A stretch of 32,000 nucleotides of DNA from Bifidobacterium longum subsp. longum JCM 1217. GTDB taxonomy: Bacteria > Actinomycetota > Actinomycetes > Actinomycetales > Bifidobacteriaceae. The notes below the pieces were generated by a model. That model was not told the origin of the DNA and did no database searches. It was given only the letters and a program-made list of their open reading frames with translations. This document shows, piece by piece, positions 6,573 to 27,819 of this stretch. A program made the position numbers and the translations under genes. Position 1 is the first letter of the stretch. The number at the start of each line of letters is the position of its first letter. The stretch covers positions 210,001 through 242,000 of the forward strand of contig NC_015067.1 of assembly GCF_000196555.1 (NCBI RefSeq). Direction: 5' to 3'.

Positions 6573-9500
6573 ATGAAAAAGAAGAAGACTATATCGGCTG
6601 CGCTGGCAACAGCGTTAGCCTTAACCTGCATGGGCAGCGGGGGAGGTACTGCGTTCGCAGTGCCCCTGTCTGATGCTGACTTGCAGACTTTGGCAAGTCA
6701 GATTCAGCAAATCAACGATACTTCTGATTCTGCAACTGCTTCCGAGACTCCTTCCGCACAAGCCGATGCGGTTGAAGGCTGGACTATTGATTCCAACATC
6801 GCTCAGGGCGGCGAAATCCTGGAGATGGCAAACGGTTGGCTGCACCTCAAGTCCACTGCCTCTAACGGTAATGCGGCAGCGAACCCCAGCTCCAGCAACA
6901 ACTGGCCGGCAGTAGCCGTATGGGGCACAGATTACGACTTCTCCAAGGCCGGCTCCTTCCACGCCACCATCAAATCCCCGCAGGAAGGCTCCGCCAACCG
7001 CTTCGGCTTCTACCTGGGCTACAACGACCCGGGCAGCGGCCTGTTCATCGGCTACGATTCGGGCGGCTGGTTCTGGCAGACCTACACCGGTGGCGGTAGC
7101 GGCAGCTGGTACAGCGGTGCTCGTATCGCTGCTCCGAGCGCCAACGAAGAGCACGACATTCGGGTCTCCTGGACCGACGCCAAGGTCGCCACACTGACCG
7201 TGGATGGCCAGAAGGCATTCGATGTCGATTACTCCGCAATGACGAACCTCTCCAACAAGCTTGCCATCAAGGCCGGCTCCTGGAAGGAGCTGAACGAGGT
7301 CACCGACGTGTACATCAAGGACTTCCCGGAGGTTGTCGAAGCCGCCAAGCACGCGGTTTCCGGCAAGGTTGTGGACGCTGGAGGCGCTGCCATTGAAGGC
7401 GCAACAGTGCGTTTGGATAAGACCAAGGTGAAGACCGGTGCAGATGGCACCTTCTCCTTCGCCGACATTGAAGAAGGCGAACACACGCTTTCGATTGCCA
7501 AGGAAGGCTATGAGGACGTCTCCCAGCAGGTGACGGTCTCCGGCGCGGATCTTGCCATCGATCCCATCACCCTGAACAAAACCGTTCAGGTCGCCTCCGA
7601 AACGCTGAAGACCAAGAAGATGGAAGTTCAGATTAAGAAGAACTTCCCCTCTGTGCTGCAGTACACGATGACCGACGGCAAGGTGATGTACGGCCAGTCC
7701 AAGGATGTGCGCACCGTTGAAATCAACGGCACCAACATCGAACTGGGCGATGACGACGTGACCTTCAAGAAGGTTTCCGACACCGAGGCCACCTACACGC
7801 TGAAGGTCAAGGATGAGGCCAAGAAGATTGACGCGGTGATCACCGTTCAGATCACGGTCAAGGCCAACCAGCTGCACCTCAACGTCACCAAGATCAAGAA
7901 CAACCTGTCCGAAGGCATTCCTGAGGGCAACGGTGTGGAGGAGAACGCCATCCAGACGCTGTCCTTCCCGAACCAGAGTCTCGTTTCCGTGCGTTCCAGC
8001 CAGGAAAATGCCCAATTCACTGGTGCTCGTATGTCTTCCAACACGCAGAAGCCTGGCGATACCAACTTCGCAGTGACCGAAGATACTAACGTCACCGATA
8101 GCGACTACACCTACGGCTTCATCTCCGGTGCTGGCCTGAGTGCCGGCCTGTGGAGCAACTCCGAGCACGATGGCACCTATGTGGCGGCTCCTGTGCGCGG
8201 CGGCAGCCAGAACACGCGTGTCTACGCCACCACCCAGCAGACTGGTGACGCCACCTCCCTGGGCCTGGCCAGCGCTCCGTGGTACTACCACCGCACGGTC
8301 ACCGATTCCAAGGGCAAGAAGTACACCGTGGCCGAAACCGCTCTGCCGCAGATGGCCGTGGCCATCGCCGGCGACGAGAACGAAGACGGTGCCGTCAACT
8401 GGCAGGATGGCGCAATCGCCTACCGCGACATCATGAACAACCCGTACAAGTCCGAGGAAGTTCCCGAACTGGTGGCATGGCGTATCGCCATGAACTTCGG
8501 CTCCCAGGCGCAGAACCCGTTCCTCACCACGCTTGACAACGTCAAGAAGGTGGCCTTGAACACCGACGGCCTCGGCCAGTCCGTGCTGCTCAAGGGCTAC
8601 GGCAATGAAGGCCACGACTCCGGCCACCCGGACTACGGCGATATCGGCCAGCGTCTCGGCGGCGCCGACGACATGAACACCATGATGGAAGAGGGCTCCA
8701 AGTATGGCGCTCGCTTCGGTGTGCACGTCAACGCCTCCGAAATGTATCCGGAAGCCAAGGCCTTCAGCGAGGACATGGTGCGCCGCAACTCTGCAGGCGG
8801 CCTGAGCTACGGCTGGAACTGGCTTGATCAGGGTGTCGGCATCGACGGCATCTACGATCTGGCATCCGGTTCTCGTGTAAGCCGTTTCGCTGACCTCAGC
8901 AAGGAAGTCGGCGACAACATGGACTTCATCTACCTCGATGTGTGGGGCAACCTGACTTCTTCCGGTTCGGAAGATTCTTGGGAAACCCGCAAGATGAGCA
9001 AGATGATCAACGACAACGGCTGGCGTATGACCACCGAATGGGGTTCCGGCAACGAGTACGACTCCACCTTCCAGCACTGGGCAGCTGATCTGACCTACGG
9101 CGGCTACACCTCCAAGGGCGAGAACTCCGAAGTGATGCGCTTCCTGCGCAACCACCAGAAGGACAGCTGGGTTGGCGACTACCCGCAATACGGCGGCGCT
9201 GCCAACGCCCCGCTGCTCGGCGGCTACAACATGAAGGACTTCGAAGGCTGGCAGGGCCGCAACGACTATGCCGCCTACATCAAGAACCTGTACACCCATG
9301 ATGTGTCCACTAAGTTCATCCAGCACTTCAAGGTGACCCGCTGGGTCAACAACCCGCTGCTGACCGCCGACAATGGCAATGCCGCTGCCGTGTCCGACCC
9401 GAACACGAACAACGGCAACGAGCAGATTACCCTGAAGGATTCCAACGGCAACGTTGTAGTAGTCTCCCGTGGTTCCAACGACACCTCTAGCGCAGCCTAC

Positions 9501-12473
9501 CGCCAGCGCACCATCACCTTCAACGGCGTGAAGGTCGCATCCGGTGTGGTCTCCGCAGGCGATGGCAGCGCCACTGGCGACGAGTCCTACCTGCTGCCGT
9601 GGATGTGGGATTCCTTCACCGGCAAGCTGGTCAAGGATTCCGAGCAGAAGCTCTACCACTGGAACACCAAGGGCGGCACCACCACCTGGACGCTGCCGGA
9701 CAGCTGGAAGAACCTCTCCAGCGTAAAGGTGTACCAGCTCACCGATCAGGGCAAGACCAACGAGCAGACCGTTGCCGTCTCCGGCGGCAAGGTGACGCTT
9801 ACCGCTGATGCCGAAACCCCGTACGTGGTGTACAAGGGCGAAGCCAAGCAGATCCAGGTCAACTGGAGCGAAGGCATGCATGTGGTAGACGCCGGCTTCA
9901 ACGGCGGCTCCAACACCCTCACCGACAACTGGACCGTCAGCGGCTCCGGCAAGGCCGAAGTTGAAGGCGACAACAACGCCATGCTGCGCCTGACCGGCAA
10001 GGTCGATGTCTCCCAGCGTCTGACCGATCTCAAGGCTGGCCAGAAGTACGCGCTGTATGTTGGCGTCGACAACCGCTCCACCGGCGATGCATCCGTCACC
10101 GTAACCAGCGGCGGCAAGGTGCTGGCCACCAACTCCACCGGCAAGTCCATCGCCAAGAACTACATCAAGGCATACGGCCACAACACGAACAGCAATACGG
10201 AAAATGGCTCCAGCTACTTCCAGAACATGTACGTGTTCTTCACCGCGCCTGAGAACGGCGATGCCACGGTAACCCTGTCTCACAAGAGCACCGACGGAGC
10301 ACACACCTACTTCGACGATGTGCGCATCGTGGAGAACCAGTACTCCGGCATCACCTATGAGAAGGACGGCACGCTGAAGTCCCTCACCAACGGATTCGAA
10401 AACAACGCCCAGGGCATCTGGCCGTTCGTGGTCTCCGGTTCCGAAGGCGTTGAGGACAACCGCATCCACCTCTCCGAGCTGCATGCTCCGTTCACGCAGG
10501 CCGGTTGGGATGTCAAGAAGATGGACGATGTGCTCGATGGCACTTGGTCTGTGAAGGTTAACGGCCTGACCCAGAAGGGCACGCTGGTCTACCAGACGAT
10601 CCCGCAGAACGTGAAGTTCGAGGCGGGTGCCAAGTACAAGGTGAGCTTCGACTACCAGTCCGGTTCCGATGACATCTACGCCATCGCTGTGGGCCAGGGT
10701 GAATACTCTGCCGGCAGCGTGAAGCTGACCAACCTGAAGAAGGCTCTGGGTGAGACCGGCAAGGCCGAGTTCGAGCTGACCGGTGGCGTCAACGGCGATT
10801 CCTGGTTCGGTATTTACTCGACCGCAACCGCACCTGATCTGCAGGGTTCCACCGGCAATGCACAGGACTTCGGCGGATACAAGGACTTCGTGCTCGACAA
10901 CCTGAAGATCGAGCGCATCGAGTCCCAGACCCGCACCAAGGCCGAAGCGCAGGACAAGGTCAAGGAAATCCGCGGCAAGTACGATTCCAAGCGTGCTGAG
11001 CTCTCCGATGCCGCATGGCAGCAGTATCAGGACACCTTGGTCAAGGCTCGCGTGCTCATCAACAAGAATGGCGCAACCGCTGAGGACTTCACCAAGGCAT
11101 ACGACATTCTCGTGGCCCTCGACGAGTACATGAAGACCGCTCCCGGCAACGAGAGCAGCGACAAGTACGACGTGGCAGCTGACGGCTCCGATGAGCTGGG
11201 TGGCTACACCGTGGCCACGGGCAGCGAAGAGCCTACCGCAGGCCTGCCGAGCGAAGGCCCGGCCGATCTGGCACAGGATGGCAACGACAGCACCCACTGG
11301 CACACCAGCTGGAGCGAGAACGCAGTCGGCAACGGCACCGCATGGTATCAGTTCAACCTCAACGAACCGACCACCATCAACGGCCTGCGCTACCTGCCGC
11401 GCTCCGGAGGTATGAACGCCAACGGCAAGATCAAGGGCTACAAGATCACGCTCACTCTGGCGGATGGCACCACCAAGGATGTCGTCACCGATGCTGAGTT
11501 CTCCACCACCACCATGTGGCAGAAGGCCAGCTTCGACGCCGTCGAGAATGTGACCGCCGTACGCTTGACCGTCCTGTCTTCCGCAGGCCAGAGCGACTCC
11601 CAGGCCAACAAGTTCGCATCCGCTGCCGAACTGCGTTTGACCACGGACCGCGAGGTTGAGGAAGAGACTGTCGCTCCGGACAAGACCGACCTCAACGACA
11701 CCATCGCCAAGGCTAACGGTCTTAAGGAATCCGACTACACGGCTGAAAGCTGGACTGCTCTGGTCAAGGCCCGCGAAGCTGCACAGGCCGTGGCGGATAA
11801 CGATAAGGCCACCGCTTACGATGTGGCTCTGGCGCTGACGAACCTCGAATCCGCTATCGCTGGTCTCGAGAAGACCGGTGAGGAGCCTGGCCCAGGCCCG
11901 GTTGAGGTGAACAAGACCGACCTGCAGACTGCAGTGAACAAGGCAAGCAAGCTCGAGAAGGCCGATTACACGACCAACTCGTGGGAAGCTTTCGCCGAGG
12001 CACTGAAGGCTGCACAGCAGGTGCTCGACAACAAGAACGCCACCCAGCAGGATGTGGATACCGCACTGAGCGCTCTTCAGGACGCCATCTCCAAGCTGGA
12101 AGCTGCCACCGAGCCGAAGCCGAATCCGGAACCGGGCGTGGTGGACAAGGCTGCTCTGAACGCGACCATCAACAAGGCCGCCGCCATCAACCTGGGTCTC
12201 TACACCGACGACTCCGCCAACGCTCTGCGCGCCGCGCTGAAGAAGGCCCGTGAGGTCTCCGACAACAGCAACGCCACGCAGAAGCAGGTCGACGCAGCTC
12301 GTGAAGCCCTGGAGAAGGCAATTGCCGCTCTGGTGAAGCGTCCCGCTGCCAAGGGTGATGGCAACGTTGTTTCCAACACGGGCTCCGATGTCGCCACGAT
12401 CGCTCTGGCTGGACTGCTGCTGGCAGGTGCTGGCGCCGCCATCGCCTACCGTCGCAATCGCGAGCAACTGTGA
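6573..12473 (+). CDS. engBF: endo-alpha-N-acetylgalactosaminidase, GH101 (EngBF-type, releases Gal-beta1,3-GalNAc from mucin-type O-glycans)
   Basis: 1,966 aa. Signal peptide MKKKKTISAALATALALTCMGSGGGTAFA. GH101 core blocks LLKGYGNEGHDSGHPDYGDIG and FIYLDVWGN. F5/8 type C (CBM32-like) module at about nt 11256-11639. Three tandem FIVAR-type ~65-aa repeats at nt 11679-12338. C-terminal VSNTG + hydrophobic helix + YRRNREQL. Confidence 0.97.
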   Translation: MKKKKTISAALATALALTCMGSGGGTAFAVPLSDADLQTLASQIQQINDTSDSATASETPSAQADAVEGWTIDSNIAQGGEILEMANGWLHLKSTASNGNAAANPSSSNNWPAVAVWGTDYDFSKAGSFHATIKSPQEGSANRFGFYLGYNDPGSGLFIGYDSGGWFWQTYTGGGSGSWYSGARIAAPSANEEHDIRVSWTDAKVATLTVDGQKAFDVDYSAMTNLSNKLAIKAGSWKELNEVTDVYIKDFPEVVEAAKHAVSGKVVDAGGAAIEGATVRLDKTKVKTGADGTFSFADIEEGEHTLSIAKEGYEDVSQQVTVSGADLAIDPITLNKTVQVASETLKTKKMEVQIKKNFPSVLQYTMTDGKVMYGQSKDVRTVEINGTNIELGDDDVTFKKVSDTEATYTLKVKDEAKKIDAVITVQITVKANQLHLNVTKIKNNLSEGIPEGNGVEENAIQTLSFPNQSLVSVRSSQENAQFTGARMSSNTQKPGDTNFAVTEDTNVTDSDYTYGFISGAGLSAGLWSNSEHDGTYVAAPVRGGSQNTRVYATTQQTGDATSLGLASAPWYYHRTVTDSKGKKYTVAETALPQMAVAIAGDENEDGAVNWQDGAIAYRDIMNNPYKSEEVPELVAWRIAMNFGSQAQNPFLTTLDNVKKVALNTDGLGQSVLLKGYGNEGHDSGHPDYGDIGQRLGGADDMNTMMEEGSKYGARFGVHVNASEMYPEAKAFSEDMVRRNSAGGLSYGWNWLDQGVGIDGIYDLASGSRVSRFADLSKEVGDNMDFIYLDVWGNLTSSGSEDSWETRKMSKMINDNGWRMTTEWGSGNEYDSTFQHWAADLTYGGYTSKGENSEVMRFLRNHQKDSWVGDYPQYGGAANAPLLGGYNMKDFEGWQGRNDYAAYIKNLYTHDVSTKFIQHFKVTRWVNNPLLTADNGNAAAVSDPNTNNGNEQITLKDSNGNVVVVSRGSNDTSSAAYRQRTITFNGVKVASGVVSAGDGSATGDESYLLPWMWDSFTGKLVKDSEQKLYHWNTKGGTTTWTLPDSWKNLSSVKVYQLTDQGKTNEQTVAVSGGKVTLTADAETPYVVYKGEAKQIQVNWSEGMHVVDAGFNGGSNTLTDNWTVSGSGKAEVEGDNNAMLRLTGKVDVSQRLTDLKAGQKYALYVGVDNRSTGDASVTVTSGGKVLATNSTGKSIAKNYIKAYGHNTNSNTENGSSYFQNMYVFFTAPENGDATVTLSHKSTDGAHTYFDDVRIVENQYSGITYEKDGTLKSLTNGFENNAQGIWPFVVSGSEGVEDNRIHLSELHAPFTQAGWDVKKMDDVLDGTWSVKVNGLTQKGTLVYQTIPQNVKFEAGAKYKVSFDYQSGSDDIYAIAVGQGEYSAGSVKLTNLKKALGETGKAEFELTGGVNGDSWFGIYSTATAPDLQGSTGNAQDFGGYKDFVLDNLKIERIESQTRTKAEAQDKVKEIRGKYDSKRAELSDAAWQQYQDTLVKARVLINKNGATAEDFTKAYDILVALDEYMKTAPGNESSDKYDVAADGSDELGGYTVATGSEEPTAGLPSEGPADLAQDGNDSTHWHTSWSENAVGNGTAWYQFNLNEPTTINGLRYLPRSGGMNANGKIKGYKITLTLADGTTKDVVTDAEFSTTTMWQKASFDAVENVTAVRLTVLSSAGQSDSQANKFASAAELRLTTDREVEEETVAPDKTDLNDTIAKANGLKESDYTAESWTALVKAREAAQAVADNDKATAYDVALALTNLESAIAGLEKTGEEPGPGPVEVNKTDLQTAVNKASKLEKADYTTNSWEAFAEALKAAQQVLDNKNATQQDVDTALSALQDAISKLEAATEPKPNPEPGVVDKAALNATINKAAAINLGLYTDDSANALRAALKKAREVSDNSNATQKQVDAAREALEKAIAALVKRPAAKGDGNVVSNTGSDVATIALAGLLLAGAGAAIAYRRNREQL

Positions 12474-13033: not shown

Positions 13034-13057
13034 TGAACCGCACCCCGATTGTTGGAC
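13034..13057. repeat. IS left inverted repeat
   Basis: TGAACCGCACCCCGATTGTTGGAC. Confidence 0.9.
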
Positions 13058-13097
13058 TGAAGTAATTCAGATTCGATGATCGGAGGTGCGGTTTCTC

Positions 13098-13613
13098 ATG
13101 TGTAGGGATCGCAGGCGTCATTACGATGACGGTTTCATGCGGGTCGTCGCCGACCTGATCCGGGGCGGGGCCGGGAGGCGTTCTCTCGCCCGCCGGCTTG
13201 GCGCGCCCGTCAGTACCGCGGGAAAATGGGTGTTGTCATACCGGTTTGGCGGGGAGGCGGCGCTCATGGGAGAACGCGAAGGCAACAGGAGATACGACTA
13301 CGAGACGAAGCTCGCGGCGGTGCGCGACCATGTGGAGCATGGGCTGACGAAGGCCGAAGTCATGGAGAAGTACAGGATCGCGGGTCCCGCCCCGTTGGAG
13401 CGCTGGTGCCGCGAGTACCGGTCCGGCGGCCCGGACGCGCTGCGTCCGAAACCGAAGGGCAGGCCCAGGGGCGCGAAATCCAAGCCGAGGCCGGCTCCCA
13501 CAAGGGAACAGCTCCTTGAGGAGGAGAACGCGTACCTCAAGGCGAGGGTCGCGTACCTGGAAAAAGTCGACGCCCTGCTGGCGTGGAGATCGGCAACCGG
13601 GACAGAACGGTGA
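13098..13613 (+). CDS. IS3-family transposase OrfA (HTH)
   Basis: ATG 13098 lies 9 nt after CGGAGGTG; the track start GTG 13086 is also possible. N-terminal HTH region and C-terminal leucine-zipper-like LEEENAYLKARVAYLEK. Confidence 0.85.
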   Translation: MCRDRRRHYDDGFMRVVADLIRGGAGRRSLARRLGAPVSTAGKWVLSYRFGGEAALMGEREGNRRYDYETKLAAVRDHVEHGLTKAEVMEKYRIAGPAPLERWCREYRSGGPDALRPKPKGRPRGAKSKPRPAPTREQLLEEENAYLKARVAYLEKVDALLAWRSATGTER

Positions 13614-14467
13614 TCGTCTCCATGCTGGCGGGGCCGGGACATCGGCTCCGGCACCTGCTCAGGGCGGCCGGACTGGCGAAAAGCACGTATTACCATCTTC
13701 TGTCGCATCCGGCCGCCGTGACCCGGCCGGACATCGAGCCGATGGTCGCCGAGATATTCGCGCGCACGCCCAACGGGTGCGGCCACCGGCAGATACGCAT
13801 GTGCCTCGTGCACGAGTTCGGGGTGCGGGTGAGCCACAAGAGCGTGCTGAAGGTCATGAGGCGCATGGGCCTGGAATGCCGGATACGCAGGCCGAACCCG
13901 TACCGGAAATACAGCTCGTACCGGGACGAGACGGGCGCGAGGGTGGAGAACCTGCTGAACCGCGACTTCACGGCCGACCGGCCGTGGGTGAAGCTGGGCA
14001 CGGACGTCACCGAGTTCAGGGTCGCCGACGGCAAGGCGTATCCGGCTCCCGTATGCGACATGGGATCCAAGGAGATCGTGGCCTGGGACGTCAGCCGGCA
14101 TCCCGACATGGCCCAGCAGTGGCGCCTGCTCGCCATGCTCGAGGAGAAGCTGCCCGAAGACGCCGACCCGATCCCGCACTCCGACATGGGCTGACAGTAC
14201 CGGCACCGGTGGTGGCGCGACCGGCTCGCGGGACTGAACATCCGCCAGTCCATGAGCAGGAAGGACAACTGCATCGACAACGCCGCGACCGAGCAGGTGT
14301 TCGGCCACCTCAAGGACGAGTTCCACGCCGGACGCGAGTTCGCCTCATACGAACAGTTCAAGAACGAACTGGACGCGTACATCATCCACTGGAACACCAA
14401 ACGCCGCCAGATACGACTGGAGGGACACACCCCGGAGGAATTCCGGAACATGTCCCCCACAGCCTAA
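13583..14467 (+). pseudogene. IS3-family transposase OrfB interrupted by an in-frame TGA
   Basis: It is in the -1 frame relative to orfA. It reads ...IPHSDMG-TGA(14192-14194)-QYRHRWW... and continues in the same frame to 14467 through SRKDNCIDNAATEQVFGHLKDE. Confidence 0.85.
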
Positions 14468-14489
14468 TCAGGTACCCTTAATAAACCAC

Positions 14490-14513
14490 GTCCAACAATC
14501 GGGGCGCAGTTCA
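14490..14513. repeat. IS right inverted repeat
   Basis: GTCCAACAATCGGGGCGCAGTTCA, the reverse complement of IRL with 2 mismatches. Confidence 0.9.
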
Positions 14514-14573
<60 letters not shown>

Positions 14574-16351: not shown

Positions 16352-16410
16352 CGATGGCGAGGTTTGTTGTCAATCCGGTGACGCATTCAAGCGTCATTGC
16401 GGTCTCAGTA

Positions 16411-16601
16411 GTGGGACGCAACTGCAATGCGGCTTGATTTGCATTTGCGTCCCACGTTGTTGCGTCCCGCAAGCGCAAAATCGACCTTTTTGCAGTTGCG
16501 GGACAGTGTGGATTGTTGGAATTCCGCCATTCTTGTGATGAGGTGCTGGGAGGGCTGTGGGACGCAACTGCAAATTGAGCCATATCGCAGTTGCGTCCCA
16601 C
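16411..16601. repeat. cluster of three hairpin units built from one 15-17-nt motif (GTGGGACGCAACTGCAA)
   Basis: Unit I: 16411-16427 / 16439-16455 (1 mismatch). Unit II: 16464-16478 / 16490-16504 (variant GTCCCGCAA..GCAA, 2 mismatches). Unit III: 16557-16571 / 16587-16601 (perfect 15 bp). The cluster lies between convergent gene ends. Confidence 0.9.
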
Positions 16602-16647
16602 TCTTATGCGGGGTTCTCGATTGCGCTTAACCGCATTGAGCGGCGTA

Positions 16648-18947: not shown

Positions 18948-20741
18948 ATGGTTCGTCGCGCCCAGGCTGCTCTTCGGTCCGTTGAACACACCAGCGTGAG
19001 GCAGCTGCGAGTCCTGGCTGCGATTGTATTTCTGTTCGCCATGGTCATCGCCACTGTGGCTCCTGCAGTCACGGCTCCGATGGCCTTCGCCGACAGCAGC
19101 ACCAGCTCGTCCAGCGTTGACTACGCCACCTGGGCCGAAGTCTCCAAGGCGATGGACAAGCAGCTGAACAGCGGTCTTGAGACGTACAAGGATGGCAACA
19201 CCGCTGGCGCCACCTCCGATTTCATGGGCGCGTACAACAAGATTTACGTGGCCTCCAACTTCACCGCGGTCGTGCACGACACCATTGGCGCGGACAAGCA
19301 GCTCGCCCAACAGCAGGCATTCCAAAGCGTTCAGAATCTTTCCTACACGCCTAGCAACGACGATCAACTGGCTCAGCAGATTGATGCGTTGACCGCCGAT
19401 CTTGACGCCACGGCCCAGCAGCTCGACGCCAACGCCGATCTCGCCAAGCCGAAGGCGTACGCCGAAGCGCTGCAGGCGCAGCTGGCCAAAGAGCGCAAGG
19501 AGCTCGACGCCAAGAAAAAGAAGAACCCGGGCAAGGGCAATCGTTCATGGACCGACGTGGCCAACGAAATGACCCCGATTCTCGACAATGCATACAAAGC
19601 TTACGAAAAGGGTGATGGTGCCAAGGGCGCCACGCTCGTGAACAACGCGTACTACCAGTATTACGAGAAGCTCGGCTTCGAAAAGAACGTGATGAACGCC
19701 ATCAGCGGCAACCGCGTCTCGCAGGTGGAATACCAGTTCAAGATGTGCCGCAAGTCCATGAACGCCGGCGCATCCCTGAAAGACACCAAGAAGCTGATCG
19801 ACGACCTCAAGGCCATGCTGATCAAGGACGCCGGCATTCTTGACGGTGGTGCCGCCGATAAGGAAGACGGTTTCACCAAGCTGGTCACCAGCTCCTCCGG
19901 CCAGGCGTTCCTCGTGCTTATCCGTGAGGGTCTTGAAGCTCTGCTGGTGGTTGCAGCCATCGTCGCCTACTTGGTCAAGTCCGATAACAAGCGCTTCGTC
20001 AAGTGGATTTACTTGGGTGTGCTCGTCGGTCTGCTCGGCGCCGGCTTGGTGGCTGTGATCTTCGTGTTCGCCTTCGGCGGCTCCGGCCCGATTCAGGAGA
20101 TCATGGAAGGCACCTGCGCACTGATCGCCATGGGCATGCTGCTGTGGACGAGTAACTGGATGCTGAACAAGTCCAGCGTGGAAGCGTGGAACCGTTACAT
20201 TCGCAAGAAGACCGAGGCTGCTGTGGCTGATGCCGAAGCCGCCGCAAGTGCCGACAACGTGACGTTGAAAACCGTGGTCTCGCTGGCTATGCTGAGCTTC
20301 CTCGCCGTGTTCCGTGAAGGCGCTGAAACCGTGATCTTCTACGAGTCCATCTACACGATGAGCCGCGATACTCGCGGTATGTGGATCGGTGGTCTGACCG
20401 CCGCGGTGGTGCTTGTCGGCATCTTCCTGCTCTTCCGCTTCACCTCCGTGAAGATTCCGATTGGTCCGTTCTTCCTGGTCACTTCGATTCTGATGTCTGT
20501 GCTGGTGGTGGTGTTCGCCGGCGGCGGCGTCCACTCGCTGATTGAGGGCGACTTGCTGCCCGCCTTCTACCTGAACGGTGTGCCGACGAACGATTGGCTT
20601 GGCCTCTACCCGTACGTCGAATGCCTAGTGGCGCAGGCCATCGCAGCCGTTGCGGTTATCGCGCTGTTCGTGGTCGGCTTCATCAAGCAGCGCAAGCTGA
20701 AGGCGCAGGCTACTGCCGAGGTCCCGGCCGTGAAGGCGTAG
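18948..20741 (+). CDS. FTR1/EfeU-family high-affinity iron permease with ~320-aa N-terminal secreted helical domain (bfeU-like)
   Basis: Signal sequence LRVLAAIVFLFAMVIATVAPAVTAPMAFA. Two REXXE motifs: REGLE (nt 19923-19937) and REGAE (nt 20313-20327). The C-terminal half is polytopic. Confidence 0.92.
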   Translation: MVRRAQAALRSVEHTSVRQLRVLAAIVFLFAMVIATVAPAVTAPMAFADSSTSSSSVDYATWAEVSKAMDKQLNSGLETYKDGNTAGATSDFMGAYNKIYVASNFTAVVHDTIGADKQLAQQQAFQSVQNLSYTPSNDDQLAQQIDALTADLDATAQQLDANADLAKPKAYAEALQAQLAKERKELDAKKKKNPGKGNRSWTDVANEMTPILDNAYKAYEKGDGAKGATLVNNAYYQYYEKLGFEKNVMNAISGNRVSQVEYQFKMCRKSMNAGASLKDTKKLIDDLKAMLIKDAGILDGGAADKEDGFTKLVTSSSGQAFLVLIREGLEALLVVAAIVAYLVKSDNKRFVKWIYLGVLVGLLGAGLVAVIFVFAFGGSGPIQEIMEGTCALIAMGMLLWTSNWMLNKSSVEAWNRYIRKKTEAAVADAEAAASADNVTLKTVVSLAMLSFLAVFREGAETVIFYESIYTMSRDTRGMWIGGLTAAVVLVGIFLLFRFTSVKIPIGPFFLVTSILMSVLVVVFAGGGVHSLIEGDLLPAFYLNGVPTNDWLGLYPYVECLVAQAIAAVAVIALFVVGFIKQRKLKAQATAEVPAVKA

Positions 20742-20914: not shown

Positions 20915-21598
20915 ATGATGAAGAACAAGAAACTGGCCGCTCTGCTCGGCCTGCTGCTCGCCGGTTCCATGACCGTGTCCATGGCTGCCTGCGGTTCCAC
21001 CAACTCCGCATCCGACACTAAGGCTGACTCCTCCTCCCAGTCTTCCGACTCCTCTTCCTCCGATTCTTCCTCCGATTCCGGCGCCGGTTTCGAAGAGGTT
21101 CCGGTTGGCCCGTCCGGTACTGCTGAAGAGCAGGATCAGGACGCCGGCCCGCTGACCGTGGGCGCTGTGTACTTCCAGCCGATCGATATGGAGCCGTCTT
21201 CCATGGGCCTGAAGGCTGCTGACGCTTCCTTCCACCTCGAGGCCGACATCCATGCCAACCAGAAGGGCACCGAGCTCGGCTACGGCAAGGGCGACTTCGT
21301 GCCGGATCTGACCGTGAACTACACCATCATCGATAAGTCCACCGGCAAGGAAGTCGAGGGCGGCACCGCCACCTCCGGTACCTTCATGCAGATGAACGCT
21401 TCCGATGGCCCGCACTACGGCGCCAACGTCAAGCTCGACAAGGCTGGCACCTACCAGCTGAAGCTCTCCATCGAATCCCCGGCCTCCAAGGGTTGGATGC
21501 TGCACGTTGACCCGGAGACCGGCGTCAAGGGCCACTTCTGGACCGAGCCGATCGAGGTCACCTTCGACAACTGGGATTACACTCCTCGCCAGTGGTGA
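20915..21598 (+). CDS. P19/Tp34-family periplasmic-type iron-binding lipoprotein (FtrA/bfeO-like)
   Basis: Lipobox SMAAC, Ser/Asp-rich linker, family blocks HLEADIHA and DGPHYGANV. SD AAGGA. Confidence 0.92.
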   Translation: MMKNKKLAALLGLLLAGSMTVSMAACGSTNSASDTKADSSSQSSDSSSSDSSSDSGAGFEEVPVGPSGTAEEQDQDAGPLTVGAVYFQPIDMEPSSMGLKAADASFHLEADIHANQKGTELGYGKGDFVPDLTVNYTIIDKSTGKEVEGGTATSGTFMQMNASDGPHYGANVKLDKAGTYQLKLSIESPASKGWMLHVDPETGVKGHFWTEPIEVTFDNWDYTPRQW

Positions 21599-21610: not shown

Positions 21611-21636
21611 AAAGCCCCCTCGTCAGAGGGGGCTTT
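21611..21636 (+). terminator. hairpin after the P19 gene (half-copy of the recurring element)
   Basis: AAAGCCCCCTC-GTCA-GAGGGGGCTTT begins 13 nt after the stop. The U-tract is weak. Confidence 0.55.
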
Positions 21637-21675
21637 ACGCCGCTTTAGGGAGATAATTCTTAGGACGGTCTAAAA

Positions 21676-21721
21676 CTCCCCTCAGTCCGCTTCGCGGACA
21701 GCTCCCCTCAGAGAGGGGAGC
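21676..21721 (+). repeat. two-hairpin intercistronic element, copy 1
   Basis: CTCCCCTCAG-GTCCGC-TTC-GCGGAC-A-GCTCCCCTC-AGA-GAGGGGAGC, followed by CTAAGGTG. Confidence 0.85.
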
Positions 21722-21726
21722 CTAAG

Positions 21727-23025
21727 GTGAACAGAGAAAGGACGCGAATGCTTGAACAATTCGTGGCAGTGATGCCGGGCACTTTGGCCCCCGCATTGCT
21801 GGTGATGAGCCTGAGCGTGATGCTCACGGTCGGCGAGGGGCGAGATAAGCCGATAAGCTCGCATTGGCGTCTCATCGGCCTGATCGTCGGTCTGATCGCC
21901 GCCATCGTATTCGCCGGCCTGCGCGCCTCGGCCGTGATCAATCAGCGCACGTTCGTCAACTACCCGGTGTTGTGGTGCGCGATCATTGCCGACATCCTGA
22001 CCATCGTCGTGGTGGTGTTCGCACGCCGCATCACCACCAATTGGCAGCAGCACAAGGTGTTCATGCACATCGCTAACGCCGTGGCCGCCATCGACATCGC
22101 ACTCACCCTGTTCTACGCGCTGCCGGACGTGATTCTGCAGCTCACCATCTGGGTGGAACCAGGGGAGACCGCATTCACTTCGGCCATGCTGCTGCGCGCT
22201 CTTGGTTTCCTGCTTGGCGTGGCCATGTCCATTATTGTGGCCGCCATCTTCCGCACGATGCGCACCACTGCCGTGCGCTGGGCGTTCACCGTGGCCGTCG
22301 CGGCCATGATGGTGATTCTGCTGATTCAACACTTCACTGGTCTTGCCCAGATTCTGCAGGCGCGAGGCTTCCCGATGAACCATACGATGTTCGTGGCGCT
22401 GGCTTGGTCCATCAACCAGAACTCCACGATGATTATGGCGCAGGCGCTGGTGTTCCTGATTCCCGCCGTGGCCTCCATCGTGGCCGGTTTCCGTATGAAA
22501 ACCCATGATGTGCCGGGAGCCAACGAGGCCACGTTGCGCCGGCATAAGGTATTCCGCCGCCACGCCATCGCCGCTGCCGTGTGGAGCCTTATCGCAGCCA
22601 TCGGCGTCACAGCAACCCTGACCGTGGGCGTTGCCGCGACCCATCAGACCATCACCCTTTCGCCGCCGGAAGCCTACTCGCTCAAGGACGGCGTGGCCAC
22701 CATCCCCTTCAGCCAGGTCGAGGACGGCCACCTGCACCGCTTCGAATACAAGGCCAAGGACGGCACCGTCATGCGCTTCATCATCATCCGAAAGAACGGT
22801 GGCGCGTACGGCATCGGCCTGGACGCCTGCGAGAACTGCGGCGACGCTGGCTACTACGAGAAGGACGGCAAGATCATCTGCAAGAAGTGCGAGGTGGCCA
22901 TCAACCTGGCGACCATCGGCTTCAAGGGTGGCTGCAACCCGATACCATTCCCGTACAAGACCGGCCACGGCAAGATCACCATTCAAACTACGGATCTGGA
23001 CGCGCTGAGCGCCCACTTCCGGTGA
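21727..23025 (+). CDS. polytopic membrane protein with C-terminal DUF2318-type Cys4 domain
   Basis: About 8 hydrophobic segments, then CENC-x13-CKKC (nt 22828-22890) and GGCNPIPFPY. Alternative start ATG 21748 has SD GAAAGGA. Confidence 0.88.
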   Translation: MNRERTRMLEQFVAVMPGTLAPALLVMSLSVMLTVGEGRDKPISSHWRLIGLIVGLIAAIVFAGLRASAVINQRTFVNYPVLWCAIIADILTIVVVVFARRITTNWQQHKVFMHIANAVAAIDIALTLFYALPDVILQLTIWVEPGETAFTSAMLLRALGFLLGVAMSIIVAAIFRTMRTTAVRWAFTVAVAAMMVILLIQHFTGLAQILQARGFPMNHTMFVALAWSINQNSTMIMAQALVFLIPAVASIVAGFRMKTHDVPGANEATLRRHKVFRRHAIAAAVWSLIAAIGVTATLTVGVAATHQTITLSPPEAYSLKDGVATIPFSQVEDGHLHRFEYKAKDGTVMRFIIIRKNGGAYGIGLDACENCGDAGYYEKDGKIICKKCEVAINLATIGFKGGCNPIPFPYKTGHGKITIQTTDLDALSAHFR

Positions 23026-23046: not shown

Positions 23047-24351
23047 ATGTTCTTTCTGCGCATGATTACTCGCTCGTTCACCCGACAGCTGCGCCGGCGC
23101 CTGCTTATCGCGCTGACCGTATGCCTGTCGGCGACCGTGTCCGTATCGATGCTGGGCGTCGTGTTCGACGTGGGCGACAAGCTCAACGCCGAGCTGTCCA
23201 CCTACGGTTCGAACATCACCGTGCAGCCCAAGGCGGATGCGGTCGTTTCCGACCTGTACAACACCGAGTCGGGCGGCGCGACGTCCACCAGCGACCCGAC
23301 CGCTTTTCTGAAGGAGTCGGACGCGGCCAAGATCAAGACGATCTTCTGGTCGTTCAACATCACCAGCTTCGCGCCGCAGCTCAACATCCACGCCACGGTG
23401 AACGGTACCAACGTGCCGGTCGTCGGCACGTGGTTCAACAAGAACCTCAAGATCTCCACCGGCGAGACTACCGTCGTGGGCGTGGAAGGCATGCGCTCGT
23501 GGTGGCAGCTGGACGGCAAGTGGCCCAAAGACGATTCCGACCAGGGCGTGATCGGCAAGACGCTGGCCTCCGAACTCGGCGTGACCACCGGCGACACCAT
23601 CACCCTCAACAAAACCACCGCCTCAGGCAAGAAGAACGAGCAGAAAATCAAGCTCACCGGTGTCTACGATTCCGGCGACGAGGACAACGGCTCGCTCTAC
23701 ATCGCCTCCTCCACGGCCCAGGTACTCGCCGACCTGCCCGATTCGGTCGACAAAATCGAGGTCAAGGCCCTGACCACGCCGGAGAACGACCTGGCCCGTA
23801 AGGCCGCCGCGAACCCGGCCGCGCTGAGCCAGGAGGAATGGGAGACCTGGTACTGCACCGCCTACCCGAGCTCGATCGCCTATCAGATCGAAGAGGTGAT
23901 TCCGGGCGCGGTGGCCAAGCAGGTGCGTCAGGTGGCCGCGTTGCAGGGCAATGTGCTGCAAAAGACGCAGGCCGTGATGATTCTGATGACCGTGCTGAGC
24001 CTGATCGCCGCAGCCGTGGCCGTGGCCAACCTGATGGTCGCCTCGATCGGCGAACGGTCGGGCGAGCTGGCGTTGCTCAAGGCGCTCGGTGCCACCGATG
24101 CCGCGGTATCCCGCCTGATGCTGGCCGAAACGGCGGCAATCTCGCTGCTGGGCGCGATTGTGGGCGCGCTGCTCGGTTCCGGCGTGGCCCAGCTGATAGG
24201 CCGGGTGGTGTTCGGTTCCGGCATTACGATGCGGCCGATGGTGTTCGTGCTGGTGTTCGTGCTGCTGGCTGTCACCGTGCTGCTGGCGTCCGCCTCATCG
24301 ATTCGTTCGATTCTGAATCTCAAGCCCGCGGAGGTGCTCCATGGTCGCTGA
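23047..24351 (+). CDS. ABC transporter permease, FtsX/MacB type
   Basis: N-terminal TM, ~250-aa extracytoplasmic domain, C-terminal FtsX block (LMVASIGERSGELALLKALGAT). Confidence 0.9.
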   Translation: MFFLRMITRSFTRQLRRRLLIALTVCLSATVSVSMLGVVFDVGDKLNAELSTYGSNITVQPKADAVVSDLYNTESGGATSTSDPTAFLKESDAAKIKTIFWSFNITSFAPQLNIHATVNGTNVPVVGTWFNKNLKISTGETTVVGVEGMRSWWQLDGKWPKDDSDQGVIGKTLASELGVTTGDTITLNKTTASGKKNEQKIKLTGVYDSGDEDNGSLYIASSTAQVLADLPDSVDKIEVKALTTPENDLARKAAANPAALSQEEWETWYCTAYPSSIAYQIEEVIPGAVAKQVRQVAALQGNVLQKTQAVMILMTVLSLIAAAVAVANLMVASIGERSGELALLKALGATDAAVSRLMLAETAAISLLGAIVGALLGSGVAQLIGRVVFGSGITMRPMVFVLVFVLLAVTVLLASASSIRSILNLKPAEVLHGR

Positions 24352-24384: not shown

Positions 24385-25608
24385 ATGACCAACACCGGTA
24401 TGTTCTTCAGAATGCTGTTCAGCGCCGTGTTCCGTCGGCGTTCGCGCGCGGTGATGGCTGTGGTGGCGTCGCTGGTCGGCGCAGCCACACTGTTCTGTCT
24501 GGCGATGATCTGCCTCGCCGTGCCGCAGCAGATGAACGAGGAGATGCGTGCGTACGGCGCGAACCTGATTGTCACGCCCACCGAATCGACCAATGCTGAC
24601 GGCAAGGCCGGCATCGACAAGGCGATGGTGCAGCACACCACTGAAATGGTCAAGGCCAAGGGTTCCGCGAAATACGCCACCTACCGCTACGAGAACGTGC
24701 GCGTCAACGCCTCGCCGTACGTTATGGCCGGCGTGAATGCGGCGCAGGTCAAGAACCTCAACCATCACTGGGTGGTCGACGGCTCGTGGCCGACCGACGG
24801 CAAGGTGCTGGTCGGACGCGACATCGCCGACGCCATCGGCCTGAGAATCGGCTCCGCCATCACCATCGGCTACCGTGCATCCGATAACGCCAGCACCAAC
24901 GGCACTTCGTCGAACTCCTCGATCGACCAGCAAACCAAAGACGGCCGTGTCTCCAGTGACATCATGGACACCTCCGGTACCGAATTCCGCGTGGCCGGCA
25001 TCGTGGACACCGGCGGCAGCGAAGACTCGATCATCTACGCCACCAACGCCGACGTCAACAAGCTCACCGGCATCACGCGCGGCGTGGACGTCATCGAGTA
25101 TTCGGCCGGCGCCAGCGACCTCGCAGGCCTGGTGTCCAGCATCAACGACATGACCTCCATGCACGTCAAGGCACAGCAGATCACCAAGATCACCGCCTCC
25201 GACACCCGCATCATCACCATGCTGCAGACGCTGTTCTGGATCGTCTCGCTGGTGGTGCTGGTGCTGACGCTCGTCGGCGTCGGCACCACAATCAGCTCGA
25301 TCGTCTCGCAGCGACGCAACGAGATTGGCCTGCGCAAGGCCCTCGGTGCTAGCTCGCGTGCCATCGGCACCGAGTTCTACATCGAATCGTCGCTCTACGG
25401 CCTGATTGGCGGCCTCATCGGCACCGCAATCGGCTACGGACTCGCCAGTTGGCTGTGCGTGGCGGTGTTCGAACGCTCCATCGTATTCAACTGGTGGCTG
25501 GCCCTGATTTCCGTGCTGTTCAGCGCGCTGGTCGCCATCGTCGCCTCCATCCCGCCCGTCCACCGCGCCACCCGCATCGACCCCGCCGTCGTGCTTCGCG
25601 AAGAATAA
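24385..25608 (+). CDS. ABC transporter permease, FtsX/MacB type (paralogue)
   Basis: Same architecture, with FtsX block SIVSQRRNEIGLRKALGAS. SD GGAAGGAGGG. Confidence 0.9.
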   Translation: MTNTGMFFRMLFSAVFRRRSRAVMAVVASLVGAATLFCLAMICLAVPQQMNEEMRAYGANLIVTPTESTNADGKAGIDKAMVQHTTEMVKAKGSAKYATYRYENVRVNASPYVMAGVNAAQVKNLNHHWVVDGSWPTDGKVLVGRDIADAIGLRIGSAITIGYRASDNASTNGTSSNSSIDQQTKDGRVSSDIMDTSGTEFRVAGIVDTGGSEDSIIYATNADVNKLTGITRGVDVIEYSAGASDLAGLVSSINDMTSMHVKAQQITKITASDTRIITMLQTLFWIVSLVVLVLTLVGVGTTISSIVSQRRNEIGLRKALGASSRAIGTEFYIESSLYGLIGGLIGTAIGYGLASWLCVAVFERSIVFNWWLALISVLFSALVAIVASIPPVHRATRIDPAVVLREE

Positions 25609-25623
25609 AGAAAGAGAAACGTC

Positions 25624-26421
25624 ATGCTACTTGAACTCGACCACATCTCGAAGATCTACGGCGACCTGCGTGCCGTGGACGACCTCAATCTGACCGTGCC
25701 GGAAGGCGAATGGCTCGCCATCGTCGGCTCCTCCGGCTCAGGCAAGACCACGCTGATGAACATGATTGGCTGCATGGACACGCCCTCCAAGGGCTCCGTG
25801 AAGCTGGAAGGCCGCAAGCTGGAGGACCTGAACGCCACGCAGCTGGCCGACGTGCGCAAGAACCTCATCGGACTGGTGTTCCAGAAGTTCTATCTGGTGC
25901 CGCACCTGACCGCCGTGGAAAACGTGATGGTGGCCCAGTACTACCATTCGGTGGTCGATGAGAAGCAGGCCATGGAGGCGCTGGAAAAGGTCGGCCTGAA
26001 GGACCGCGCCCACCACCTGCCCGGCCAGCTCTCCGGCGGCGAGCAGCAGCGCGTGTGCGTGGCCCGCGCGCTGATCAACGACCCGAAGCTGATTCTGGCC
26101 GATGAGCCCACCGGCAACCTCGACGAGAAGAACGAGAAAATCGTGCTCGACCTGTTCCGCAAGCTGCACGAGCAGGGCACCACGATTATCGTGGTCACCC
26201 ACGATGCGCTGGTCGCCAGCTGCGCGCAGCGCGAGATCATGCTCAACCATGGCGTGCTCGTCGGTGAGAAGTGGAATGACGAGGATGCGCGCAAGGCCTA
26301 CGAGGCGGCCGGCGGCAAGCCCGCCTCCACGGGTGCACAGGTCGAGGGCGCGCAGAACGGCGAGACCGCCATTGGTTTCACTGACCCCACCAAGGCCGCG
26401 AAAACCGGCGGCGAGGAGTAG
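25624..26421 (+). CDS. ABC transporter ATP-binding protein (MacB/LolD-like) with ~45-aa low-complexity tail
   Basis: Walker A GSSGSGKTT, signature LSGGEQQR, Walker B LILADEPTGNLD. Confidence 0.95.
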   Translation: MLLELDHISKIYGDLRAVDDLNLTVPEGEWLAIVGSSGSGKTTLMNMIGCMDTPSKGSVKLEGRKLEDLNATQLADVRKNLIGLVFQKFYLVPHLTAVENVMVAQYYHSVVDEKQAMEALEKVGLKDRAHHLPGQLSGGEQQRVCVARALINDPKLILADEPTGNLDEKNEKIVLDLFRKLHEQGTTIIVVTHDALVASCAQREIMLNHGVLVGEKWNDEDARKAYEAAGGKPASTGAQVEGAQNGETAIGFTDPTKAAKTGGEE

Positions 26422-26473: not shown

Positions 26474-26521
26474 CTCTCCCCCAGTCAGCTTCGCTGACAG
26501 CCCCCCTCGTCAGAGGGGGGC
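26474..26521 (+). repeat. two-hairpin intercistronic element, copy 2
   Basis: CTCTCCCCCAG-GTCAGC-TTC-GCTGAC-A-GCCCCCCTC-GTCA-GAGGGGGGC, followed by TTAAGGAG (the SD of the next gene). Confidence 0.85.
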
Positions 26522-26536
26522 TTAAGGAGCGTGAAT

Positions 26537-27100
26537 ATGACCGAAAAGAGTACGTTGAAGAAATCCGCGACATTGGCGGCGGCCGGACTGGTCGTGGCTG
26601 GCGCGCTGCTGGCCGGATGCGGCGAATCCAAGGCCGCGCCGATGGACGATGCGTACGCCGGCAACTCGGGCGAGACCGAGAAGTCGCAGGAAGAGCAGTC
26701 GCAATCCCAGTCGAACGGCTCCGATAGCTCCGACGGCTCCGATTCCAGCTCGTCGCACAACGACCCGTCCACCACCACGTCCGACAAGAAGGACACCGGC
26801 AACTACAAGGACGGCAACTACTCGATCAACGGCCAGTACGGCCCGGTAGGCGAGGATTCCATCGACGTCCATCTGACCATCAAGGACGGCAACGTCGAGA
26901 CCGTCAATATCATTGGGCACCCGTTCACCACGATTTCCAAGAACCATCAGGACGACTTCGCCAAAGCCATTAACGGCGTGGTGGACGGCAAACCTCTGAA
27001 GGGTCTCAAAGTGGACAAGGTCGCCGGCGCCAGCTGGACCTCCGACGCCTTCAACAAAGCCCTCGAAGTCGCCCGCCAGGAGGCTTCGATTCAGGAGTAA
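26537..27100 (+). CDS. FMN-binding-domain lipoprotein
   Basis: ATG lies 7 nt after AAGGAG. Lipobox LLAGC, Ser/Asp-rich linker, and an FMN_bind-like fold (GNYKDGNYSINGQY...VHLTIKDGNV...DKVAGASWTSDAFNKAL). Confidence 0.82.
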   Translation: MTEKSTLKKSATLAAAGLVVAGALLAGCGESKAAPMDDAYAGNSGETEKSQEEQSQSQSNGSDSSDGSDSSSSHNDPSTTTSDKKDTGNYKDGNYSINGQYGPVGEDSIDVHLTIKDGNVETVNIIGHPFTTISKNHQDDFAKAINGVVDGKPLKGLKVDKVAGASWTSDAFNKALEVARQEASIQE

Positions 27101-27705: not shown

Positions 27706-27819
27706 CTCTTCTCTTCGAAATATGCTCCCGTACGCTCCCGCTGGCGAGAGCTGGCTGGCAAAGCCAGACTGAGGGTGGTAAGTCCATGCCGTTTGTAGGC
27801 AACTCCCGGATAATACCTA

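Follow-up and report, generated by a model that had tools for sequence, protein, structure and literature searches.

What are the two similar double-hairpin elements that lie between genes of the iron-uptake operon of Bifidobacterium longum subsp. longum JCM 1217? The operon was analyzed within a window of 32,000 nt (NC_015067.1, positions 210,001 to 242,000 of the forward strand), and all coordinates are those of this window. [quoted passage not shown] The present analysis favors the alternative. Copies 1 and 2, together with a diverged third copy at 27730-27780, very probably belong to a dispersed family of palindromic repeats of ~50 nt of the type of REP sequences and bacterial interspersed mosaic elements (BIMEs), and the repeat is apparently a new, undescribed member of the REP-type repeats. 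The copies in the window and their parts are as follows.

21674-21725 / 21676-21729, plus strand: copy 1 (covariance model (CM) R1, 74.8 bits, E = 2e-17; nhmmer, 55.9 bits; exact match to the family pattern).
21676-21684, plus strand: head of copy 1, CTCCCCTCA.
21685-21699, plus strand: hairpin 1 of copy 1, GTCCGC-TTC-GCGGAC.
21700, plus strand: spacer A of copy 1.
21701-21721, plus strand: hairpin 2 of copy 1, GCTCCCCTC-AGA-GAGGGGAGC.
21722-21727, plus strand: purine-rich tail of copy 1, CTAAGG.
26473/26474-26529, plus strand: copy 2 (CM R1, 56.1 bits, E = 1e-12).
Within copy 2, plus strand: head, CTCTCCCCCA.
26484-26498, plus strand: hairpin 1 of copy 2, GTCAGC-TTC-GCTGAC.
26500-26521, plus strand: hairpin 2 of copy 2, GCCCCCCTC-GTCA-GAGGGGGGC.
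26522-26529, plus strand: tail of copy 2, TTAAGGAG, which contains AAGGAG (26524-26529).
27730-27780, minus strand: diverged third copy, CCCTCAGTC-TGGCtttGCCA-GCCAGCTCTCGC-cag-GCGGGAGC (CM R1 with filters off, 19 bits, E = 0.002).

Copies 1 and 2 share one plan, in which a head CTCCCC(T)CAGTC is followed by a 6-bp hairpin, ACA, and a 9-bp hairpin of the form GCYCCCCTC/GAGGGGRGC. A 27-nt core pattern, CAGTCNGCTTCGCNGACAGCNCCCCTC, had exactly two matches in the window, both on the plus strand, and none in 100 shuffled sequences; the two aligned copies in the same orientation are thus real, with the sequences originally quoted. The limits first given for copy 1 (21676-21729) hold, whereas the end given for copy 2 (26531) was 2 nt too long and is placed at 26529. 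In the pairwise alignment, both differences within the stems are compensatory, as had been noted: stem 1 reads GTCCGC/GCGGAC in copy 1 and GTCAGC/GCTGAC in copy 2, and stem 2 reads GCTCCCCTC/GAGGGGAGC and GCCCCCCTC/GAGGGGGGC, respectively. Each copy is predicted to fold into two adjacent hairpins (copy 1, -27.7 kcal/mol, z = -3.6; copy 2, -34.3 kcal/mol, z = -4.6), and the minus strands fold equally well. In copy 2, a closing helix is also predicted between CUCC (26476-26479) and GGAG (26526-26529). The 5' flank in the head, CTCCCCTC, duplicates the 5' arm of stem 2, and this duplication is found not only in copy 1, where it was first seen, but family-wide. The mutually exclusive folding that had been derived from it is unlikely to act as a switch and was rejected as such: the alternative fold of copy 1, with the head paired to the 3' arm of stem 2, is predicted at -22.4 kcal/mol against -27.7 kcal/mol for the minimum free energy structure, and it is 5.3 kcal/mol weaker and kinetically disfavored. 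The third copy lies between the genes of an ABC-2 permease and a TetR protein, both on the minus strand, and its stem 2 still pairs by way of altered bases. A further CM match at 1422-1471 (17.7 bits) was rejected as a family member; it is a plain long hairpin between convergent genes. A general repeat search of the window did not place copies 1 and 2 among its top-ranked repeat families because of the 1-nt indel in the loop.

The element occurs far beyond the operon. A loose pattern was used first and matched nine viral contigs, eight of which carry the full element with a differing, self-complementary hairpin 1. A strict pattern with 25 specified bases was then run on a collection of species-representative genomes and matched at least 120 genome loci. 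Among the matches listed, the majority are from Bifidobacterium species of New World monkeys, and the bifidobacteria listed include B. catulorum, B. miconisargentati, B. callimiconis, B. callitrichidarum, and B. primatium; other matches listed are from Collinsella, several metagenome-assembled genomes (MAGs) of Oscillospiraceae, Dialister, a Porphyromonadaceae MAG, and a Myxococcales MAG. A match in a MAG labeled Methanoregulaceae (L104) is doubtful as an archaeal occurrence because the neighboring gene encodes a bacterial-type (type I) GAPDH. By BLAST, one copy each was found on plasmids of two Deinococcus isolates (91.5% and 85% identity), and three human-gut phage contigs matched as well. 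In 0.9 Mb of fetched loci, an nhmmer profile detected 252 non-overlapping copies, of which B. catulorum contributes at least 50 from just 12 loci.

Called genes are overlapped by 11 of the 252 copies (~4%), and ~95% of the copies are intergenic; 33 copies at locus edges were left unclassified. The 208 copies between two called genes comprise 132 in tandem, 65 in convergent, and 11 in divergent spacers, against a background of 343, 106, and 92 spacers, respectively (chi-square p = 2e-7). Divergent spacers are therefore depleted in copies; the family avoids promoter regions and favors gene 3' ends. In the tandem spacers, 58 copies are on the same strand as the genes and 74 on the opposite strand, which is no bias (p = 0.19). 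Neighboring copies within 400 nt are arranged in inverted orientation in 82 cases and directly in 14 (p = 7e-13), mostly with gaps of 10-35 nt, and the hairpin-1 sequences differ in 34 of 35 inverted pairs. In a common inverted pair, GTCAGCTTCGCTGAC stands beside GTCTCRC...GYTCGAC, and the frequent doublet types have GTCAGC...GCTGAC next to GTCTCRC...GYTCGAC. No target-site duplication of 2-6 nt was detected at 25 offsets around 59 singletons, the counts never being above those of shuffled sequences. In two loci of Oscillospiraceae MAGs (L073:1981-2548 and L054:1813-2230), three to four copies are arrayed in direct orientation with a spacing of ~130-200 nt, in contrast to the inverted doublets of bifidobacteria.

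The unit of ~50 nt consists of a head, (G/A)CTCCCCTCA, hairpin 1, a spacer A, hairpin 2, and a purine-rich 3' tail formed by a C and about five purines (C-R-R-R-R-R). In hairpin 1, the outer GTC/GAC pairs are fixed, and the inner pairs vary freely while pairing is kept. In an alignment of 48 sequences, the three inner pairs use all of GC, CG, AU, and UA, and 97.8% of the cells are paired, compared with ~50% in slid controls; both sides are changed in 49 cells versus 12.4 in shuffles, and none of 500 shuffles reached 49. In an independent count, 95.8% of the inner pairs were Watson-Crick pairs versus 59% with the arms shuffled. Selection on the RNA of one strand would predict an excess of wobble pairs, and the non-canonical cells (5 G-T and 11 A-C) give no such excess on the plus strand. 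Hairpin 2, GCTCCCCTC-N3-9-GAGGGGAGC, is conserved in its sequence and is nearly invariant, as is the head, which is in part an effect of the search pattern; the added pairs of a longer stem 2 covary. This agrees with a unit in which hairpin 2 and the head form a module recognized by its sequence and hairpin 1 forms a second module that is constrained in structure only. The outer 10 nt of the unit form inverted repeats, GGCTCCCCTC and GAGGGGAGCC. Of the two signs that the preliminary description expected of an RNA-level function, covariation is thus strong, and orientation bias (58 versus 74, p = 0.19) is absent.

The surroundings of copies 1 and 2 were compared with orthologous operons, which were found via homologues of the FtrD-like protein, inspected directly, and scanned with model R1. 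The row of genes from FTR1 to FMN_bind that harbors both copies is an iron-uptake operon and comprises the following features.

18948-20741: FTR1 permease gene.
20915-21598: P19/Iron_transport gene.
21737-21742 and 21748-21750, plus strand: Shine-Dalgarno (SD) sequence AAAGGA and start codon ATG of the FtrD-like/DUF2318 gene, with 5 nt between them, outside the repeat.
21748-23025, plus strand: FtrD-like/DUF2318 gene.
23047-24351: FtsX permease 1 gene.
24385-25608: FtsX permease 2 gene.
25624-26421: ABC ATPase gene.
26537-27100: FMN_bind protein gene.

In the orthologous operons, copies are absent or differ in place and orientation, as listed here with the identity of FtrD.

L144 (68%): no copies; tight junctions; overlap between the genes of ABC and FMN_bind.
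L149 (88%): both window positions without a copy.
L150 (86%): only a stem-2 hairpin after P19; neither copy 1 nor copy 2 at the window junctions.
L142, B. simiiventris (83%): FtrD-FtsX1 junction with a (-,+) doublet and a length of 224 nt, versus 21 nt in the window.
L140 (89%): plus-strand copy before FtrD; weak degenerate minus-strand match after P19; minus-strand copy before FMN_bind.

An element of the copy-2 type with ~46 identical nt is present in L149 on the opposite strand at the FtsX1-FtsX2 junction, and L150 has minus-strand copies split by a nested palindrome at two other junctions. The spacer between the ABC and FMN_bind genes ranges across species from a gene overlap to 282 nt and has no conserved structure. 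This comparison of gene neighborhoods indicates that copies 1 and 2 are lineage-specific insertions and not conserved parts of the operon. The proposal of a strand-specific RNA element tuning the distal operon genes is thus not supported, on three counts: the family has no orientation bias, its covariation is strand-symmetric, and the copies are absent from the corresponding junctions of sister species with 86-88% identical FtrD.

The same loci contain other repeats. In L150 (10930-11144 and 12339-12628), stem 2 of a minus-strand copy is split by a palindromic insert of ~100 nt, the same composite occurring twice. A second, unrelated palindromic repeat of ~130 nt, TGTCATTTCGAGCG...GAGAAATCTC ... 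GAGATTTCTC...CGGTCGAAATGACA, lies in two other junctions of the B. simiiventris operon (L142:5815-5996 and L142:8156-8318), the spacers of which have been colonized by more than one repeat family. Tandem units of ~100 nt (GGGGCG...CCTCGG...TGGTGG...TGCCCCGCT), broken by an assembly gap of N, follow FMN_bind in L140 (11994-12877).

The relation of the two copies to translation starts was also reconsidered. The FtrD/DUF2318 protein starts at ATG 21748 (425 aa) in the gene calls of ten assemblies of the same species and of locus L151, and homologues of 422-425 aa span 100% of this 425-aa form; the protein is found on at least 1000 contigs, and its closest named homologues are bifidobacterial. On this evidence, FtrD is very unlikely to begin at GTG 21727, and this codon is unfit to be annotated as its start. 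ATG 21748 has its own SD sequence, and the 3' arm of stem 2 does not serve FtrD as an SD, contrary to the earlier assignment of this arm to GTG 21727. At copy 2, AAGGAG (26524-26529) is 7 nt upstream of ATG 26537 of the FMN_bind gene and is likely its SD sequence. The suggestion that the repeat carries its own SD therefore applies to the tail of copy 2, which provides AAGGAG before ATG 26537, and fails for copy 1, in which TAAGGTG is not the SD of the real start.

Four other explanations were weighed against these results. A dedicated sense-strand RNA element acting in cis (as a hairpin for processing or stability, as a partial terminator, or as a gate of translation) and tuning the distal genes of the iron operon is suggested by the sense orientation of both full copies at intercistronic junctions, by their stable predicted hairpins with compensatory stem changes, and by the tail of copy 2, which shares sequence with the SD of the following gene and, by prediction, pairs with the head. 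Nevertheless, we consider it very improbable, because the family is oriented 58/74 without bias, G-U is not favored over A-C, sister species have no copies or have them at another place or on another strand, and the same element recurs in unrelated contexts, in other phyla, and in frame within genes; moreover, copy 1 does not supply the SD of the true start, and no U tract follows the hairpins. Hairpin 2 and the head are conserved in sequence and not in structure alone, which would suit binding sites of a host protein (a nucleoid-associated protein, gyrase, or a regulator) that are kept by selection and not by transposition, and E. coli BIMEs do bind IHF and gyrase. Such sites are, however, hard to reconcile with near-identical copies at non-orthologous places in sister species and with copies in frame inside coding genes, and distant phyla would need the same protein, for which no candidate was identified; this explanation is very unlikely. 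A classical MITE, that is, a non-autonomous derivative of an insertion sequence (IS) with terminal inverted repeats and a target-site duplication, dependent on a DDE transposase, would share with the family the dispersed, variable distribution and the inverted repeats of the outer 10 nt (GGCTCCCCTC ... GAGGGGAGCC), but the 59 singletons have no duplication of 2-6 nt, the unit is only ~50 nt, no parent IS with such ends was seen in 0.9 Mb, and neighboring units are inverted in alternation as in BIMEs. A MITE is very unlikely here; the choice of a REP/BIME-like over a MITE-like repeat, both of which were covered by the original alternative, is supported by the lack of a target-site duplication.

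The remaining explanation is compatible with a REP/BIME-type identity: mobile copies could have been exapted and could now act as exonuclease barriers or attenuators, raising P19 over the membrane components and setting FMN_bind translation. E. coli REPs stabilize upstream mRNA, and the REP between malE and malF of E. coli may serve as a precedent by analogy. All P19-FtrD spacers (93-263 nt) contain a strong hairpin, which in four other species is of the CCCCTC/GAGGGG type and mostly followed by T's, and AAGGAG of copy 2 is placed 7 nt from ATG 26537. However, the feature conserved in position is a simple hairpin by the P19 stop codon and not the two-hairpin copy 1, and the ABC-FMN_bind spacer varies from an overlap to 282 nt without conserved structure. 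Exaptation at these junctions is accordingly regarded as possible but doubtful.

The REP/BIME-type repeat remains the preferred reading. As in REPs and BIMEs, a hairpin-forming palindrome with compensatory pairing is present in many extragenic copies on both strands, and the copies form an alternating mosaic. Here, we propose that the repeat is selfish or neutral DNA and spreads as such. The invariant hairpin 2 and the head, in single-stranded or cruciform DNA, would probably be recognized by an enzyme acting in trans, for which a transposase like the REP-associated tyrosine transposases (RAYTs; Y1-HUH) is the obvious model. The sense-strand copies 1 and 2 would then be lineage-specific insertions into tolerant spacers. 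In transcripts, their stable hairpins (-28 and -34 kcal/mol) could, as a side effect, stop 3'-5' exonucleases or hold up ribosomes or RNA polymerase, and the tail of copy 2 may have been co-opted as the SD of FMN_bind, which the CUCC:GGAG helix may partly mask. Within the P19-FtrD spacer, selection at the RNA level would most likely act on the hairpin at 21611-21636, which is placed like the E. coli malE-malF REP. Any RNA-level effect of the copies in this operon would be secondary.

Several points weigh against this reading. With E. coli RayT as the tblastn query, neither the window nor the ~1.1 Mb of fetched loci gave a match below E = 1, and no recurrent transposase was seen beside the copies in the fetched loci, so that mobility is deduced from distribution only. 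The distribution itself rests on the fetched loci and the at least 120 listed loci, and three copies are known from the genome of the window, all from 32 kb. The orientation statistics use genes from a home-made codon-usage caller, which reproduces the operon of the window, and the conservation of stem 2 and of the outer pairs of stem 1 is partly by construction, much of both having been fixed in the seed pattern. Both good copies in the window are in sense orientation and intercistronic, and copy 2 lies on an SD sequence, which leaves room for a local exapted RNA role. Among 18 proteins scanned against Pfam (those encoded between two copies and three long genes with in-frame copies), there was no transposase; the proteins include acetate kinase, DAHP synthase, BioY, TetR, PIN, and GH28, and the genes flanked by copies are housekeeping genes. 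Clustering of 686 proteins encoded near copies, with representatives not scanned against Pfam, gave only ordinary paralogue families of ~280-780 aa, which is the usual length range of regulators, glycosidases, and components of transporters, and no transposase was seen. With Rfam 15, the window has no gathering-level match except tRNAs, and the matches with E <= 10 are far below threshold and unrelated. Literature searches with exact sequence strings returned unrelated primers only, and those on REP doublets forming hairpins (REPINs) and RAYTs, palindromic repeats, or MITEs in Bifidobacterium gave no account of the family, although one may exist elsewhere in the literature.

The family resembles the REPs and BIMEs of E. 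coli in being a short GC-rich imperfect palindrome with many extragenic copies enriched at gene 3' ends and in operons, in forming clusters of distinct types in alternating orientation with short linkers and no target-site duplication, and in that such repeats can sit between genes for a periplasmic binding protein and membrane components. It differs in the unit, which has two hairpins and a head, CTCCCCTCAGTC, in place of one GTAG-tagged hairpin, in that no RAYT was found in the fetched loci and the window, and in that it is near-identical in Actinomycetota, Bacillota, and Deinococcota, whereas REP families are normally lineage-specific. The GTAG (or CGTC) tag of E. coli REPs is replaced by the conserved head, (G/A)CTCCCCTCAGTC, and a minor subfamily reads CTACCCCTCAG, with the tag on the side opposite to that in E. 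coli REPs. Like REPINs (PMC3116915, PMC3337134; Bertels and Rainey), the copies are most commonly found as inverted doublets (82 of 96 neighbor pairs), and the copies within one genome are related; unlike in REPINs, the halves of the doublets differ in hairpin 1 (34/35), so they do not form a single long perfect hairpin, and no flanked single-copy RAYT was seen in the loci studied. REPIN-RAYT systems are described as mostly vertically inherited within a lineage (10.1101/2022.05.22.493013), in contrast to the spread of the present family across phyla. It is tentatively possible that the family is a horizontally spreading REP-like system that stays at least 85-90% identical between Actinomycetota, Bacillota, and Deinococcota and has reached dozens to hundreds of copies in some genomes of Bifidobacterium and Oscillospiraceae. 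If so, it would imply a broadly distributed mobilizing enzyme, unlike the vertical, lineage-bound REPIN-RAYT pairs.

Some copies lie in frame within real genes (L010:2804-2855; L029:2522-2572 and 1747-1788; L116:4446-4497). In a xylosidase, one copy occupies the linker that connects the GH43 domain to the GH43_C2 domain. In an Eco57I-like enzyme of ~1300 aa, another comes after the methylase domain, and two species have it at the same position; the peptide encoded by in-frame copies is GSPLRGELSAKPTEGS. In a sediment MAG of Myxococcales (L041:1-5493), the element codes for repeated linkers, EKTPQSRSARQLPSRGEQ, flanking an acyl-carrier-like segment in an open reading frame (ORF) of >1800 aa. 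Rickettsia palindromic elements likewise insert in frame into genes. Some in-frame copies inside real genes are thus a likeness to the palindromic elements of Rickettsia and the MITEs of Coxiella (PMC5896051), but the gene overlap is ~4% (11/252) in the present family, and the sequences are unrelated.

Two features known from bifidobacteria were also compared. In B. animalis subsp. lactis, GGGACAG(N)15TGTCCC was reported as a potential novel motif, 95% of which is intergenic (PMC5217627, Table 7). It is a bifidobacterial palindrome with the GACAG/CTGTC core that joins the hairpins of the present repeat, and L140 has an outer GGACAG...CTGTCC stem around a CCCTC/GAGGG hairpin; on the other hand, it was described as a spaced word pair without structure or family and was compared by that description. 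It may be a relative of the family. The transcriptome of B. breve UCC2003 revealed bidirectional terminators and transcript ends at GC-rich stem-loops without poly-T (PMC5746004). The hairpin at 21611-21636 is similar to bifidobacterial Rho-independent terminators in being GC-rich, with A's before and T's after it, whereas copies 1 and 2 are purine-tailed, have no T tract, and were not flagged by the terminator scan. As intrinsic terminators, copies 1 and 2 were rejected on account of the C-R-R-R-R-R tail, the missing U tract, and the lack of a flag in the scan.

The hairpin near the P19 gene merits separate treatment. The features concerned are listed with the hairpins of orthologous P19-FtrD spacers.

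21611-21636, no strand assigned: hairpin of the stem-2 type, AAAGCCCCCTC-GTCA-GAGGGGGCTTT, beginning 13 nt past the P19 stop codon.
21637-21652, minus strand: possible decayed rest of a minus-strand copy, TTTACGCCGCTT TAGGGAG (by-eye likeness).
P19-FtrD hairpin in the window: GCCCCCTCGTCAGAGGGGGCTTT.
P19-FtrD hairpin in L149: GGCCCCCTCATCAGAGGGGGCTTTTGG.
P19-FtrD hairpin in L150: GCTCCCCTCAGCCTGAGGGGAGCTTTCGCTGTTTTG.
P19-FtrD hairpin in L142: GCTCCCTTCCGCACGAGGGGAGCTTTTGCTGTTTTT.
P19-FtrD hairpin in L143: AAGCCCCCTCATATCGAGGGGGCTTTGG.

The half copy reported at 21611-21636 is confirmed by 18 nt identical to stem 2 of copy 2. It is predicted to fold with -24.7 kcal/mol (z = -5.0), and the terminator scan flagged it on the minus strand only, the T's at its 3' side being only TTT; from its sequence, it looks like a bidirectional terminator or attenuator. 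The orthologous P19-FtrD spacers are all long (93-263 nt) and contain a strong hairpin, in most cases a CCCCTC-loop-GAGGGG hairpin soon after P19 that is often followed by T's. With similar hairpins recurring at the same junction in L149, L150, L142, and L143, 21611-21636 is the best candidate for a feature selected at the RNA level, as an attenuator or as a stabilizer of the 3' end, after the periplasmic P19 gene. The adjacent 21637-21652 resembles by eye the minus-strand consensus GAGGGGAGC-TGTC..GAC-TGAGGGGAG, and the CM scan of the window finds the hairpin 21611-21636 alone (12 bits, E = 0.13). At the orthologous spot of L140, the CM match (12.3 bits, E = 0.33) appears by eye as a degenerate minus-strand copy. 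With low confidence, 21637-21652 and the hairpin may represent a minus-strand copy that forms an inverted (-,+) doublet with copy 1.

For annotation, the hairpins at copies 1 and 2 should not be recorded as operon-specific riboswitch-like regulators, and the repeat is the source of spurious short ORFs and of unusual linker peptides like GSPLRGELSAKPTEGS. REP/BIME-like repeats have scarcely been described in bifidobacteria. A family that is abundant in species of the primate gut and shared with distant phyla offers a handle on how such repeats move and on their enzyme, as well as on how often they are co-opted as terminators, mRNA stabilizers, or ribosome-binding sites in gut commensals.

The window contains other repeats and a large glycosidase gene. 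An IS-like element at 13034-14513 has 24-nt inverted repeats at its ends (92% complementary), an ORF with HTH_Tnp_1/HTH_28, and a second ORF with no Pfam match. It adjoins 14508-14567, a partial match to a tRNA (model positions 7-64; 33.7 bits). At 16410-16602, there is a 46-nt inverted repeat (AGTGGGACGCAACTGCAA...; 87% complementary, arms 101 nt apart) with a related third arm at 16468-16500, a site upstream of the gene of an HxlR-type regulator. The gene at 6573-12473 encodes a 1966-aa endo-alpha-N-acetylgalactosaminidase of family GH101 that contains FIVAR and F5/8 type C domains. It matches B. longum EngBF in size and architecture, which, like the bifidobacterial FtrD homologues, makes it very probable that the window comes from the B. 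longum group. At 1601-1737, the minus-strand DUF805 gene contains three to four direct repeats that are imperfect (~70% identical) and 30-52 nt long; lying inside a gene, they probably encode a repetitive low-complexity segment.

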